Positions 23,884 through 28,446 of a stretch of DNA of 54,094 nt are shown here, one piece after another (within the stretch, counting starts at the first letter, position 1; each line of letters begins with the position of its first letter). Both the position numbers and the translations under genes were made by a program. This DNA is from a virus. The DNA is taken from the IMG/VR virus record IMGVR_UViG_3300018059_000002, positions 1 through 54,094 of that record, one strand, 5' to 3'. Below the pieces are notes generated by a model. That model had not been told where the DNA came from, did not search any database, and worked only from the letters and a program-made list of their open reading frames with translations.

Positions 23884-23940
23884 CGTTCAGTGTGGAGCAA
23901 TCCTAACTGACGAGGTCGTCAGGCGTCAAGTGATGCGCGT
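23884..23940 (-). promoter_or_regulatory. Early promoter-operator cassette E1
   Basis: Minus strand: TTGACG (23929-23924), an 18-nt spacer holding the dyad CTGACGACCTCGTCAG (23922-23907), then TAGGAT (23905-23900), then the leader box CTCCACACTGAACG (23897-23884). Confidence 0.55.
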
Positions 23941-24136
23941 CTTGTTTCTCGAACATTATGCCTCCACACTCGCACGGTGCGGGCACACGCATAGGTGCAC
24001 CAAATTGGTAGACTTTACCGCAGCTCATACAGCGCCATCGGACGCTTTTCATCCCTTCGTTGGGTTTTAGAATGCGATCAGGCTCCCCAAATTCACGCAA
24101 TACATCGGCTCGCGTTTTAATCTTCCCACTTACCAT
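23903..24136 (-). CDS. Small Zn-ribbon protein
   Basis: Start trimmed to ATG 24136 (MVSGKIK...); the longer track ORF overlaps the polymerase out of frame. CMSCG...CECGG forms a four-Cys ribbon. The C-terminus PDDLVS is encoded by the E1 dyad. Confidence 0.5.
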   Translation of the reverse strand: MVSGKIKTRADVLREFGEPDRILKPNEGMKSVRWRCMSCGKVYQFGAPMRVPAPCECGGIMFEKQDAHHLTPDDLVS

Positions 24137-25979
24137 AGCGTTGCGCCTCCCATGCATCAGGTACCTTAATTGGCCACGGTTGGCCGTCTTCGCACACCGC
24201 CCACGCGGGCAGCGGGCGCACGCATTCCATGTAGCCGGCGATACTGCCGAACCCGTCAGGCACTTCTGCGACACCCTCGTCGTGAGTGTGCATCACGATC
24301 GGATAGCCTGCACGCTCTAAGCGCAACAAAGAATCGGCTTGTATTTGTCGGCACATGAACGATATGACGTTTTGAGTTTGCACCCCACCATATAAGCTCA
24401 TCCTCACCCAGCCTAGCGCGCCCTTCGTTTGGTTCGAGTTGTTACCCTCATAGGACATTTCGAATTCCCACGGGCTCGCGTAGTTGCGCTGCGAAGGCGT
24501 CAGACGCGGCGCGTGATAGCGAATGTATCCACCCGAAGGCGGCCGGCAATACAGTACATCGTCGTAGACTTGATACAGTACGCCAAGCCGCGATTGTGGG
24601 TTAGAGCTGAAGCATTGACCGGGTTCTAAGATAGCGGAGATGGCGGCTCCCTCCAATCCGTACAGTATTTGCTGTTCGTTGTGTCTGAACTTATTAAGGG
24701 TTTGGCCGCCCCAAAAATTTACGATGTTGGGAATAGCGTCGCGTGTCTTCAACACCACGGCTTTAATTGCATCGTCATCGCCTAGCAGATCGTCAGCGCC
24801 AAAACGTTTCCACCCATTAACCCACGCGCCGAAGTCTGCGGACAACACTGACAGTTTACCTAGTTGCCGGTCATCGTGGTGCTTGCCGTGCTGTTTTCTA
24901 AACGCTTGATACTCTTCGACTGACTTACCCGTCAGTAACGCGGCTTGCGCTTCGTAAATCTTCCCGTGGGTTCTAAACACGTCGATGCGCCATTGTTCAT
25001 TAGCCATGCAAGACGTTGCAACCGCTTGTATGGCGGTGAAGTCCGCAGACAGCAAACGGTGTCCCGCCTTGGCGATGATCATCGAACGCAGGCAGCTTGC
25101 AACCACTTCGAGGGCATCTAACGCGCCGTTGTTCTTTGGGTCGAGCGCCCACGCTGAACCCTCGCCGTATTCATATTCGAGCAGTTCAATAGATCGGCAA
25201 CGAATGATTGCGAGCGCGCGTTCAACTTGCTCGGGCTTTGAAAAAACACCCTTGTACAAGTTGGCCGGCTGCACGCCTCTACCATTCCACAGCGAAGTGT
25301 GTGCGCCGTAATAGGTGTATTGATCGTAAAGCCGCCCCGACGATGTCGTCTGCGATCTAAACGCGTAATACTTTTTACAGCTACCAAACGCGAGGATTTG
25401 CCGGATACGCAACACACGCAACACGTTGCGCGGGTAGTCGGTGCGCTTCAATGCGTCGGCAAGCGTGTCTTCGTCAAGTTCGTAAAGATAAACGCCCTGT
25501 GTGCGCATCCATTCGAGCATTTTTGCAACTTCGGTTGACTTCTGTACCGCGTGGTTTGTTATCTCGCGCAGCTCGCTGTTATAGCGCAACTCGGCTTGTT
25601 CAATGATAACGATGCAATCTTCGACCGCTGCCGTATCGACTTGCATGCCGCGCATGTTGATACGCAAGTCAAGCTTCCATACATCGTGCTCGCGGGGCGT
25701 TAGATCAGGCACACGGGCGCTAACGTGTGCCTCGGTTATGATGTCTTGCTTGTTGTATTCATAGAACCGCGCGAAGTCATCGGCGGCAGTAAGCGGCGTC
25801 CATCGCAACGACTGGTTTGCCTTCGTGGGTTTCTTCGGCATCGTCAGCTTGCGAATTAAATCGCTGCCGGCTTTATCCTTTTGCTGCGATACGTTCAACA
25901 CTGCGCCGAGTTCGCCGAGTGCGCCGGGGTACGCAGATGCGCGAGCCTTCGCGGCAGAACAGTGAGCTTGATCAGTCAT
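24117..25979 (-). CDS. Family A DNA polymerase, C-terminal fragment (ExoIII plus polymerase domain)
   Basis: ExoIII is YNKQD, motif A is SADFTAIQA, motif B is RQLGKLSVLSADFG and motif C is VMHTHDEG. ExoI and ExoII are absent here and are found in ORF 27288..27908. Confidence 0.85.
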   Translation of the reverse strand: MTDQAHCSAAKARASAYPGALGELGAVLNVSQQKDKAGSDLIRKLTMPKKPTKANQSLRWTPLTAADDFARFYEYNKQDIITEAHVSARVPDLTPREHDVWKLDLRINMRGMQVDTAAVEDCIVIIEQAELRYNSELREITNHAVQKSTEVAKMLEWMRTQGVYLYELDEDTLADALKRTDYPRNVLRVLRIRQILAFGSCKKYYAFRSQTTSSGRLYDQYTYYGAHTSLWNGRGVQPANLYKGVFSKPEQVERALAIIRCRSIELLEYEYGEGSAWALDPKNNGALDALEVVASCLRSMIIAKAGHRLLSADFTAIQAVATSCMANEQWRIDVFRTHGKIYEAQAALLTGKSVEEYQAFRKQHGKHHDDRQLGKLSVLSADFGAWVNGWKRFGADDLLGDDDAIKAVVLKTRDAIPNIVNFWGGQTLNKFRHNEQQILYGLEGAAISAILEPGQCFSSNPQSRLGVLYQVYDDVLYCRPPSGGYIRYHAPRLTPSQRNYASPWEFEMSYEGNNSNQTKGALGWVRMSLYGGVQTQNVISFMCRQIQADSLLRLERAGYPIVMHTHDEGVAEVPDGFGSIAGYMECVRPLPAWAVCEDGQPWPIKVPDAWEAQRYGKWED

Positions 25980-26170
25980 GTGTTGTCTGTTGCCTCAAGA
26001 GGTAAGCAGTGCACAACCCAGCGCAGCGCGTATTCGACAGTTCGCGGGATTGGTGATTCCCCTGCTATGTACTTACGCATTGTTCGCTCATTGATCCCTA
26101 TTTCCTTTGCCGAGCCGCGCTGTGACAGTCCAGCGCGGTCCAGTAGCTTCGCAAGCTGGACGGCGGTCAC
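25976..26170 (-). CDS. Small XRE-like helix-turn-helix protein
   Basis: 64 aa. GLSQRGSAKEIGINERTMRKYIAG is a typical HTH. Its stop overlaps the polymerase ATG (ATGA). Confidence 0.6.
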   Translation of the reverse strand: MTAVQLAKLLDRAGLSQRGSAKEIGINERTMRKYIAGESPIPRTVEYALRWVVHCLPLEATDNT

Positions 26171-26439
26171 CGCGGCACCGGTAAATCTGAAAATACTTTA
26201 TCTATCTGTGCCGACGCCGCCTCACGTTCAGCGATATTTGCAAATCCGTCCCCTGGTGAAAAGCTAGGCTCATACAAGCGCGCATCCATGACGGCTGCAT
26301 AGATTGCGCCATCGGCTGTAAAAGTAACTCCTTTCGTGAGCGGATAAACTTTGCCGCCGATGTTTTTGTATACCCGCCACACCCATGCGTGGTGGGAATT
26401 TTTCTCGCACTGCTTAATTTCTATGCAAAGACCCATCAC
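26167..26439 (-). CDS. Hypothetical protein
   Basis: 90-aa ORF that overlaps both neighbouring genes by 4 nt. Confidence 0.55.
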   Translation of the reverse strand: MMGLCIEIKQCEKNSHHAWVWRVYKNIGGKVYPLTKGVTFTADGAIYAAVMDARLYEPSFSPGDGFANIAEREAASAQIDKVFSDLPVPR

Positions 26440-26636
26440 AGCACCGCCTTACGCTTTTTGTCATAAATCACAGTATCGTCATCGTTCAGTATCTGCACGT
26501 AGTCTGCATCTGGATATTCGTCCATGTAATCCTTGACTGCTCGTTTTGCGACCTGCAAGCCATCAACATCTTCTGCATCGATGATGATGTTGCCGTCTGC
26601 ATCTAGCGCGATAATTCTGTAGTAACCCATCTTCAT
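26436..26636 (-). CDS. Hypothetical acidic protein
   Basis: 66-aa ORF with GGGAGA upstream of the ATG. It is the first gene downstream of the promoter at 26664-26693. Confidence 0.55.
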   Translation of the reverse strand: MKMGYYRIIALDADGNIIIDAEDVDGLQVAKRAVKDYMDEYPDADYVQILNDDDTVIYDKKRKAVL

Positions 26637-26663
26637 TCTCCCGTTTGCGTTGTCAATGGGTGT

Positions 26664-26693
26664 ATTAGACCATTAAACCCTATAGGGTGTCAA
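26664..26693 (-). promoter_or_regulatory. Sigma-70-like promoter with CCCTATAGGG palindrome in the spacer
   Basis: Minus strand: TTGACA (26693-26688), an 18-nt spacer, then TCTAAT (26669-26664). The spacer contains the perfect 10-bp palindrome CCCTATAGGG (26678-26687). Confidence 0.5.
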
Positions 26694-26709
26694 GCCCTAT
26701 ACAAGAAAT

Positions 26710-27012
26710 TTATTTAGGGGGCTCCGATCCTGTGGTCTGAGGTAAGCACCGGAGACCAATTTTAGTGGTGCCTCTAGTACCGCCAAGCGATAGACTTTTT
26801 GCAGAATAAAATTGATTTAGCTCACAATTGTGTAGCGCGACATATCCGCCGCCCTCTAATATTGCGCAAGGATACGGCACGCCATCATCGTCTTTGCCTT
26901 CCTCTGCGCAGCCGCTCACGCGATCCACCTCGTGTGATTCACCATAGGCAACCCAGAGAACCATGCCGTAGCTCAGCTCATTATTAAGCGTTTGAATTTC
27001 GTCGTCATTCAT
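26710..27012 (-). CDS. Hypothetical protein, EEGKDDDGVPYPCAI family (paralog of 28057..28446)
   Basis: Start trimmed to ATG 27012 (MNDDEIQTL...). It shares EEGKDDDGVPYPCAI...FYSAK and about 44 nt of near-identical DNA with the 28283-28326 region. Confidence 0.55.
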   Translation of the reverse strand: MNDDEIQTLNNELSYGMVLWVAYGESHEVDRVSGCAEEGKDDDGVPYPCAILEGGGYVALHNCELNQFYSAKSLSLGGTRGTTKIGLRCLPQTTGSEPPK

Positions 27013-27259
27013 TGTCACTACCTCTGTTCTGGAGCGGGGTTCCGGTGATGTGAATGCGCTCAACCATTGCTTGATGCGCACGTATCGAACCCTCGCTGGC
27101 CTCGTCTTGTGCAACGAACTTGCCGCGCTTCTTTGTTGCCTCGTCCCATTCCCAGACGTAGGTTTCTGCATAGCGCGCTTGCACCACCATTGCAGATAAA
27201 TCACGGTCAATTGTGCTGACGACAAAGCCACCAATGTAAGTCACTGCGAGCGAACTCAT
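27005..27259 (-). CDS. Hypothetical protein
   Basis: 84-aa ORF with GGAGG 8 nt upstream of the ATG at 27259. Confidence 0.5.
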   Translation of the reverse strand: MSSLAVTYIGGFVVSTIDRDLSAMVVQARYAETYVWEWDEATKKRGKFVAQDEASEGSIRAHQAMVERIHITGTPLQNRGSDNE

Positions 27260-27287
27260 TTCGTGCCACCTCCGGTTTGGTTAGGTT

Positions 27288-27908
27288 TCATAGAGGCGGC
27301 AGCCCTTGTTCATCGCAATGAAACGGAGGCCAGCCTAACACTGGTACACAATGAACATTCCATACGGTCCATTCAAAGTTAACGTTATGCGCTTCAAGCT
27401 TGCCTCCAGCTTCGACGTGTTCGAGTAGCGTTACCGGGTGCAGTAGGTTCGGGCACTCGCACGGGCACCCGAACCTTACAGGGCAATCGCACGCGTGGTT
27501 AACATCGTACCGTGGGTATTGTTTATAAGTTGTTGAGGGTTCCGGCCGCCACCATTGCACCCCGTTGCCGTCTTTAAGATTGTAAGCGAGCGACAATACC
27601 TCAAAGCTATGATGTTCTACGTAGTTACGCGTGCCCACCGCTTTAAGCCCGCGGTTTTGAGCTGACAGACCCGGCGGCGAATCCCATTTTTGTTCTAGCG
27701 GATTCCACACCAAACCCGCTTCGCTGTATGTTTCAAAATCGAAATCAGGTAACACAGTTGCAAGGCCGATGCCTGCAACAAATTGTGTACCGGCGCGTGC
27801 GTGTCGCCAGTCAACCATTATCGGGTGCCTTAGTAGGTAGCCGCTGTTGCCGCAATCGAAGTTCTTCAAATAGGGATTGCGGGCATTGGCAATATTCGAC
27901 AGCCGCAT
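27288..27908 (-). CDS. Family A DNA polymerase, N-terminal 3'-5' exonuclease fragment (ExoI plus ExoII)
   Basis: 206 aa. ExoI is LPDFDFETYSEAG and ExoII is LEAHNVNFEWTVWN. The ORF ends at a stop (27288) just where intact homologues continue toward ExoIII. Confidence 0.7.
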   Translation of the reverse strand: MRLSNIANARNPYLKNFDCGNSGYLLRHPIMVDWRHARAGTQFVAGIGLATVLPDFDFETYSEAGLVWNPLEQKWDSPPGLSAQNRGLKAVGTRNYVEHHSFEVLSLAYNLKDGNGVQWWRPEPSTTYKQYPRYDVNHACDCPVRFGCPCECPNLLHPVTLLEHVEAGGKLEAHNVNFEWTVWNVHCVPVLGWPPFHCDEQGLPPL

Positions 27909-27968
27909 AGGGGACCGGCGTAACCAATGTCTTTAATGGCAACCAGCATATTCCGCAGTGTGCCTCAC

Positions 27969-28172
27969 TCATAGTGCTGATCCTGATGCCTCAAGAGGTA
28001 GTCCATAGCGTTTACTAAGCTCCCTCGCCAATGCAATCCGTTCTCGGGTAACTCGCTCATGGTCCCTCTGCGTAAAGGATGCGGCTTGAGTGAACGGCCA
28101 TTCTTGATCGGAATACTTCAACTCGGCAATCAACATGCCGACCATAGCCTTTCGTATCTGCTGACGATTCAT
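27969..28172 (-). CDS. Hypothetical protein
   Basis: 67-aa ORF of balanced composition. Its C-terminal LPLEA, and 14 nt (tgcctcaagaggta), are shared with the end of ORF 25976..26170. Confidence 0.45.
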   Translation of the reverse strand: MNRQQIRKAMVGMLIAELKYSDQEWPFTQAASFTQRDHERVTRERIALARELSKRYGLPLEASGSAL

Positions 28173-28446
28173 GCCTCACGCATGACTTTTCTCGTGTGTG
28201 TGTGGTCCGAGATAGTCTCTTGGCTGAATAGAACATGCTCAGTTCGGCGGAATACAGCGCGGCATAGCGACCGTTTGCAAATATCGCGCAAGGGTACGGC
28301 ACACCATCATCGTCTTTGCCTTCTTCCGGATGACCACCAATCCCGACAACTTCGCGCGCCTCAATGCCGCTTATCCAAAAAACCACACCGCGCTTAACTG
28401 CCTGTCTCAACAAGTCGATTTGCTCATCATTCATTGCCGTGCTCAT
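28057..28446 (-). CDS. Hypothetical protein, EEGKDDDGVPYPCAI family (3' end uncertain)
   Basis: The N-terminal roughly 85 aa parallel ORF 26710..27012. The C-terminal roughly 40 aa overlap ORF 27969..28172 out of frame and look like read-through. Confidence 0.45.
   Translation of the reverse strand: MSTAMNDEQIDLLRQAVKRGVVFWISGIEAREVVGIGGHPEEGKDDDGVPYPCAIFANGRYAALYSAELSMFYSAKRLSRTTHTREKSCVRHESSADTKGYGRHVDCRVEVFRSRMAVHSSRILYAEGP

Follow-up and report, generated by a model that had tools for sequence, protein, structure and literature searches.

What becomes of a DNA polymerase's proofreading site when its catalytic motifs lie in two separate genes, with five more genes standing between them? 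The question is raised by IMG/VR virus record IMGVR_UViG_3300018059_000002, whose whole stretch of 54,094 nucleotides (nt), herein the window, is an apparently complete ~54-kb tailed-phage genome with terminase, portal, and major head protein present. Its replication module lies on the minus strand and encodes a DUF2800 protein, a Gp2.5-like single-stranded DNA (ssDNA)-binding protein, a family A DNA polymerase (PolA), and a UvrD-like helicase; the polymerase occupies two open reading frames (ORFs), herein the N and C fragments, 1,308 bp apart (Table 1). We consider it highly probable that the two ORFs are a two-gene family A polymerase that arose by gene fission, with a composite proofreading site and a boundary that has been collecting small accessory genes.

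An earlier note, written by a model from the sequence alone, had placed ExoI and ExoII on an ORF at 27288..27908 and ExoIII with polymerase motifs A, B, and C on another at 24117..25979; both minus-strand ORFs are found there. In fused numbering (N fragment, 1 through 176; C fragment, 177 through 796), all three motifs of a DnaQ-type 3'-5' exonuclease are conserved and spread over the two ORFs. The N fragment carries ExoI (DFDFETYS, D27/E29) and ExoII (HNVNFEW, N145/F148/E149); the C fragment carries ExoIII (YNKQD, Y251/D255, or Y75/D79 in its own chain) and the polymerase residues D489 (motif A), R547/K551 (motif B), and H742-D743-E744 (motif C). Across 117 sequences these polymerase residues do not vary; motifs A and C of the relative SppYZU01 can be aligned with Taq, and the glutamate rather than aspartate in ExoII is a trait of the whole polymerase family. 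The C fragment also matches PHROG 17 “DNA polymerase” (7.8e-50). For the N fragment the internal ATG at 27818 is most likely the true start, as judged from the relatives, all of which begin at the equivalent of M31; the upstream ATG at 27908, taken as the start before, would give 206 amino acids (aa) in place of 176. A 53-aa ORF (27811-27972; CxxC…CxC) overlaps the likely N-fragment start by 8 nt and begins on a CTATGA junction; it scores poorly by codon usage, which leaves both its reality and the N-fragment start (27818 or 27908) uncertain.

The two fragments were compared with intact polymerases. In tblastn searches of cultured phages in GenBank, they match adjoining, same-frame parts of single polymerase genes at 35 to 43% identity, including those of Shewanella phage SppYZU01 (806 aa), Oceanospirillum phage PD0307 (750 aa), Stenotrophomonas phage B2 (778 aa), and phages of Vibrio, Alteromonas, Pseudoalteromonas, and Aeromonas; a megablast search with the region found no match among GenBank phages. 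A joined-fragment query retrieved 707 homologs, and among the best 120 of these nearly all are single proteins of 730 to 858 aa, with 99 to 100% query coverage and 50 to 67% identity. Relatives had been proposed as a check for an uninterrupted gene, and ~110 more distant relatives, as well as the cultured phages, have exactly that, one intact gene of ~750 to 830 aa. By alignment, the two ORFs complement each other exactly to make up one family A DNA polymerase, with the break falling between ExoII and ExoIII as the note had it.

This break has a narrow distribution. Among 61 related loci classified by script, the identical junction, in which the N fragment ends in GWPPFHCDEQGLPPL and a stop and the C fragment begins MTDQA(H/R)CSAAKARASAYPGALGEL, is confined to the window's close clade, where identity to the window is 71 to 84% for the N fragment and 84 to 93% for the C fragment; a DNA-pattern scan of metagenomes for the left junction returned only the known L025 contig and chance matches. 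The core split clade is monophyletic in 196 to 200 of 200 neighbor-joining bootstraps. Seven distinct genomes share the junction and differ in what stands within it. In L001, the window's closest relative, the fragments overlap (gap of −4 nt, ATGA) and nothing lies between; the gap is 178 nt in L002-L004 (one 61-aa zinc-ribbon ORF), 187 nt in L005/L006 and in L017 (one 63-aa ORF), 190 nt in L016 (one 65-aa ORF), and 738 nt in L015/L025 (three to four ORFs). The window, with five ORFs and a mini-ORF, bears the largest load. The inserted genes are mutually unrelated between genomes, and other junctions of the module, such as those where the polymerase adjoins the ssDNA-binding protein gene and the helicase, are equally variable. 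Since the same break occurs without an insert (in L001 and, one codon further on, in L060) and unrelated inserts are found elsewhere, the cassette did not split the gene, as had been supposed from the window; read from these junctions, it is a later, lineage-specific addition at a pre-existing boundary.

A large-database search with the N fragment as sole query returned short matches only, hinting at a widespread split; an IMG/VR scan and the fused query showed this to be a retrieval bias. Several of these short matches are contig-end truncations or separate, independent breaks, and most relatives are intact, such as L020 (IMGVR_UViG_3300005844_000028), whose N part is 54 to 55% identical and which has no blastn similarity to the window. 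Breaks at other positions are seen in L010/L011/L058 (~25 residues after the window junction), in L007/L008 (in a KKPPKPK tract, with a 23-nt overlap resembling a frameshift), and in L009 (after ExoIII). These breaks are independent; some may be sequencing frameshifts, and several recur in independent samples.

The junction itself retains signs of how it arose. At this site most intact relatives read GWPxLxQEQCRCAMAK. One intact polymerase, P0036 (locus L061, 5001-7319), carries in frame a 10-residue insertion, GWPPLCIDAEGNPPLYQSQIHDCMAK, which is the loop cut in the split genes, and apart from substitutions a 1-nt change in length is all that separates it from the split version: the split junction DNA is 1 nt shorter and reads CTATGAC, with the TGA of the N fragment overlapping the ATG of the C fragment. 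The junction is consistent with an origin by a small frameshifting indel, P0036 not being the direct ancestor. A short tandem duplication (GWPPF/GLPPL, DEQ/TDQ) was also considered as the origin of the junction and was set aside in view of the same loop, in frame, in intact P0036. In L060 (5001-7369; P0007, P0092) the cut lies one codon downstream (…MLPAFS and a stop, then MIQLHDAMAK, overlapping in TCATGAT), and there is no insert. With the loop columns excluded, 170 of 200 bootstraps pair L060 with intact P0036 as its sister, so that there were either two separate cuts in this loop or one cut followed by re-fusion in P0036.

An origin in which the insert came first is improbable. It would have a mobile element, for example a free-standing homing endonuclease gene or some other selfish cassette, split the gene, with L001 and L060 losing it again and the present ORFs being leftovers or replacements. 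Two lineages with a 4-nt stop/start overlap and no insert fit this poorly, as does the intact relative that has the same enlarged loop and is set apart by a 1-nt length change and substitutions. It is true that most split genomes carry something at the junction and that T4-like phages supply precedents (mobE in nrdA, seg in gene 43; PMC2988022); the insert contents, however, are unrelated to each other, and none of the five cassette ORFs of the window shows a homing-endonuclease, intein, or defense-system signature in Pfam, PHROGs, or PADLOC searches.

For the fission itself we propose the following course, in the lineage ancestral to a small group of tailed phages, uncultured and ~50 to 54 kb in size. 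A surface loop of the exonuclease domain would first have been lengthened by ~10 residues; a 1-nt length change, with a new overlapping stop and start (CTATGAC), would then have turned one ORF into two translationally coupled ones. In the insert-free relatives the ATGA coupling would keep the stoichiometry of the two products, and in the window a chain of overlaps may keep translation of the C fragment coupled to that of upstream genes, with a possible interruption at a 73-nt gap. The N fragment (ExoI, ExoII) and the C fragment (β5, ExoIII, polymerase) would re-associate by fragment complementation, building the proofreading site from two chains and presumably retaining exonuclease activity. 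The new boundary would behave like the others in this mosaic replication module, with small accessory genes gained, lost, and swapped.

Selection on the two fragments was assessed from pairwise Nei-Gojobori ratios of nonsynonymous to synonymous substitution (dN/dS) within the clade, which are 0.06 to 0.18 for the N fragment and 0.03 to 0.09 for the C fragment, some of these values being rough. Twelve catalytic and motif positions (D27, E29, F148, E149, Y251, D255, D489, R547, K551, H742, D743, and E744) are invariant in all split members, and the ratio of protein distances in the N part to those in the polymerase part is 1.08 in the split clade vs. 1.10 to 1.19 in intact relatives. As far as substitution patterns can tell, both fragments are under purifying selection, with no relaxation after fission. 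These data leave very little room for the suggestion, raised from the window alone, that the N fragment is decaying, or serves an unrelated stand-alone role, while the C fragment works as a polymerase devoid of proofreading. The 1.3 kb between the fragments and a possible internal promoter there would suit such a separation. Nevertheless, the low dN/dS of the N fragment holds across pairs with dS of at least 0.4 up to saturation, its residues D27, E29, F148, and E149 do not vary, and no acceleration over intact relatives is seen; the C fragment keeps Y251/D255, which would be of no use without the N fragment, and the N fragment lacks β5 and ExoIII and so has no complete DnaQ-type fold alone.

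An AlphaFold2 model was calculated for the two fragments fused end to end. A single-sequence run gave a mean predicted local distance difference test (pLDDT) score of 30, and the run based on a 120-sequence alignment was used instead (pLDDT 93.1, predicted template-modeling score 0.90). Foldseek matched this model to 6vdd, 7r0k, 1kfs, and 1d8y at probability 1.0 and template-modeling scores of 0.5 to 0.66; the fold matches the Klenow fragment, Mycobacterium smegmatis Pol1, and phage G20c PolI. In the model the ExoII helix (146 through 161) ends the N fragment, the junction is a lower-confidence loop (162 through 180), and a strand (181 through 183) followed by the ExoIII helices belongs to the C fragment. 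The predicted structure places the break in the surface loop that joins the ExoII helix to the β-strand after it, inside the exonuclease fold and not between domains.

Several points weigh against a two-gene polymerase with a composite proofreading site. With Pfam PF00476 the C fragment reaches 15.9 bits, short of the gathering threshold of 34.3, and several intact relatives exceed that threshold (45.8 bits for L037). Synonymous divergence ranges from 0.4 to saturation and is saturated in several pairs, which makes some of the dN/dS values rough. The fused-chain model is an artificial single chain driven mainly by the alignment of intact homologs, and it speaks for compatibility of the fold, not for association of two chains; physical association of the polypeptides and an active exonuclease are inferred from selection, the conserved residues, and that model. 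Finally, the order of frameshift first and inserts later rests on parsimony, the ancestral insert state not being reconstructable.

That a single chain is restored after all, by RNA splicing, split-intein trans-splicing, ribosomal frameshifting, or bypassing, is hardly credible: introns and inteins are frequent in phage polymerase genes and the frames overlap by 4 nt in the insert-free relatives, but no Rfam intron family attains its gathering score anywhere in the window, nor does one appear at E ≤ 1 in 25800..27500, no intein domain is found and the ~11 + 5 extra terminal residues relative to intact homologs are too few for intein halves, the insert-free relatives are still two-framed, the insert of the window consists of five ORFs with a coding signature, a slippery heptamer is absent at CCUCUAUGA, and we know of no precedent for a 1.3-kb ribosomal bypass. 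The earlier reading of the region as free of introns and inteins holds. With neither present, and with the two halves complementary, the exonuclease site would be assembled from two polypeptides, as that reading had also envisaged.

Split phage polymerases are already known. In S-SBP1-like T7-like cyanophages, described as the first PolA case, a frameshift cuts PolA where its exonuclease and polymerase domains meet (PMC10201439). As in S-SBP1 (Czernecki et al. 2023, PMC10201439), a family A phage polymerase has here probably become two same-strand genes by fission with its motifs retained, and the window junction is consistent with the kind of small indel or frameshift that gave S-SBP1 its new stop and start. 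Re-association is predicted for the S-SBP1 fragments, whose new termini would face the solvent. In contrast to the domain-boundary cut of S-SBP1, the window break lies inside the exonuclease fold, between ExoII and ExoIII, which makes for a composite catalytic site. The window polymerase also belongs to another PolA subfamily, with Leu in motif B where Klenow has F762, and to a module with DUF2800 and a Gp2.5-like ssDNA-binding protein; and whereas the S-SBP1 genes overlap with nothing between them, the window's clade has zero to five intervening genes. MEP401/MEP402-type OM43 phages (PMC10580990) likewise encode PolA as two ORFs, with one small ORF of unknown function between them. Their break, however, is inside the polymerase domain (ORF13, exonuclease plus N-terminal polymerase; ORF15, C-terminal polymerase), and the single small ORF is conserved in position with an intron origin left open, whereas in the window an intron is excluded and insert content varies through the clade.

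Gene 43 of Aeromonas phages 25 and 44RR (43A/43B) and nrdA of Aeh1 are also essential replication enzymes cut inside a functional region into two cistrons with variable material between, either an untranslated spacer or a gene; in experiments the split gp43 of phage 25 and Aeh1 NrdA fragments co-purify and are active, a precedent for fragment complementation (PMC2988022; PMC3045599). Gene 43 differs in encoding a family B polymerase, and the homing endonucleases seg and mobE that stand between those cistrons have no detectable counterpart in the window. The fractured genes joined by split inteins (Dassa et al. 2009, PMC2677866) resemble the locus in their two pieces, in the ORFs between, and in their occurrence in phage and metagenomic DNA, polymerase genes included; the window, unlike them, has neither intein halves where its fragments end nor a homing endonuclease between the two, and no protein ligation is expected. 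A split polymerase has in addition been reported for an uncultured cyanophage lineage (bioRxiv 10.1101/325100). Within the searchable literature, which is incomplete, neither a cut between ExoII and ExoIII nor a junction with variable gene cargo was found described; the position and the cargo are new to that extent.

If the two-gene reading is right, selection can preserve a DnaQ-type proofreading site whose fold is cut midway and shared out between two polypeptides. The loop would be a specific permissive site, of use for the engineering of split polymerases and for work on how the exonuclease fold assembles. The relatives form a natural series (intact, enlarged loop, split without insert, and split with one, three to four, or five genes) in which a boundary can be seen becoming a landing place for genes. 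Annotation pipelines would present the 620-aa product as a polymerase lacking its exonuclease and list the 176-aa one as hypothetical, and both labels would mislead.

The genes between the fragments were examined by codon usage, with log-odds trained on the window's long genes and compared over six frames (Table 1). Each of the five cassette ORFs scores highest in its own frame, in keeping with the five small genes first seen in the 1,308 bp; an 11-codon mini-ORF comes in addition. What had been listed as a 174-aa ORF (26710..27234) is really the 100-aa gene ORF100, its 5' extension being non-coding by codon usage. ORF100 has a paralog in the gene at 28057..28446, with which it shares 53% identity and the motif EEGKDDDGVPYPCA. 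At the sensitivity available, this paralog is the only homolog of a cassette ORF found by tblastn on the fetched loci, by a concatenated query of 5.8 billion proteins, and by IMG/VR scans. The XRE-type helix-turn-helix named in the note is that of ORF64, which falls below the Pfam threshold with support from PHROGs and is the sole cassette ORF with a recognizable domain.

The cassette is tightly linked by overlaps. The N-fragment TGA overlaps the mini-ORF ATG (CTATGA), the mini-ORF TGA overlaps the ORF84 ATG, ORF84 and ORF100 share 8 nt, ORF66/ORF90 and ORF90/ORF64 meet in GTGA, and ORF64 meets the C fragment in ATGA; the mini-ORF contains a GGAGGT Shine-Dalgarno sequence for ORF84. A comparable mini-ORF, MKPFTDGEKQ, occurs in L015/L025 (L015:5501-5533) and, like that of the window (27256-27291), begins ATGAAACC (MKP…); both carry the Shine-Dalgarno sequence of the next gene and end in an overlapping stop and start. 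The likeness could stem from a remnant common to both genomes or from convergence on a coupling device.

The internal promoter proposed at 26664-26693 stands as a motif and fails as a significant one: the match to consensus is weak, the consensus scan missed it, and the motif is not above chance. The palindrome overlapping its −35 element, found at a single place in the window, lacks statistical significance, and a hairpin in the 73-nt gap is no more stable than shuffled sequence (z = −1.2). No terminator-like site was found on the coding strand within the region, and co-transcription of the whole module is therefore plausible. There is a slim chance that the split is a functional design. The N:C ratio would then tune proofreading, with the 73-nt gap, its promoter-like element, and the nearby XRE regulator uncoupling C-fragment from N-fragment expression, or the junction would be a preferred docking site for small cargo genes; if so, tuning would shift the mutation rate or the tolerance of modified or damaged DNA, and docked cargo (polymerase modulators, anti-defense factors) would be expressed in fixed coupling with the replicase.

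Table 1. Polymerase fragments, intervening cassette, and neighboring features of the window
Feature	Position	Strand	Description	Codon-usage log-odds
PolA N fragment	27288..27818	minus	176 aa; β1-β4, helices A and B, ExoI, ExoII; C terminus …GWPPFHCDEQGLPPL-stop	
Inter-fragment gap	25980..27287		1,308 bp	
Mini-ORF	27256..27291	minus	11 codons, MKPNQTGGGTK; read from sequence	
ORF84	27005..27259	minus	84 aa	+0.23
ORF100	26710..27012	minus	100 aa, MNDDEIQ…	+0.21
Non-coding gap	26637..26709	minus	73 nt; sole non-coding gap in cassette	
Promoter-like motif	26664..26693		TTGACA-18-TCTAAT; perfect −35, 4/6 −10, 18-nt spacing	
Palindrome	26678-26687		CCCTATAGGG; perfect 10 bp, overlaps −35	
ORF66	26436..26636	minus	66 aa	+0.28
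ORF90	26167..26439	minus	90 aa, GTG start	+0.13
ORF64	25976..26170	minus	64 aa; XRE-like helix-turn-helix	+0.05
PolA C fragment	24117..25979	minus	620 aa; N terminus MTDQAHCSAAKARA; β5, ExoIII helices, thumb, palm, fingers, motifs A, B, C	
Zinc-ribbon ORF	23903..24136	minus	small ORF just downstream of PolA C fragment	
ORF100 paralog	28057..28446	minus	upstream of polymerase	

The zinc-ribbon ORF that follows the polymerase in the window has a 47%-identical homolog between the two fragments in L002-L004 (L002:6489-6674); its position after the polymerase in one case and between the fragments in the other indicates that small genes move between module boundaries.

Further variation lies within the polymerase chains. 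Two intact relatives, L037 (4971-7976) and L053 (86-3196), have an in-frame insertion of ~250 to 290 aa in the polymerase domain, in which Pfam finds no intein domain; an insertion of ~0.9 kb in the polymerase domain is also present in Shewanella phage SFCi1 (H8), Vibrio phage 97.13 (H14), and Pseudomonas phage MR14 (H16). In the N fragment of the window, residues ~92 through 125 (27440-27545) form a variable Cys-rich insertion (…YDVNHACDCPVRFGCPCECPNLLHP) that is absent or different in relatives and has pLDDT values of 59 to 84 in the fused-chain model; it may be a small metal-binding loop.

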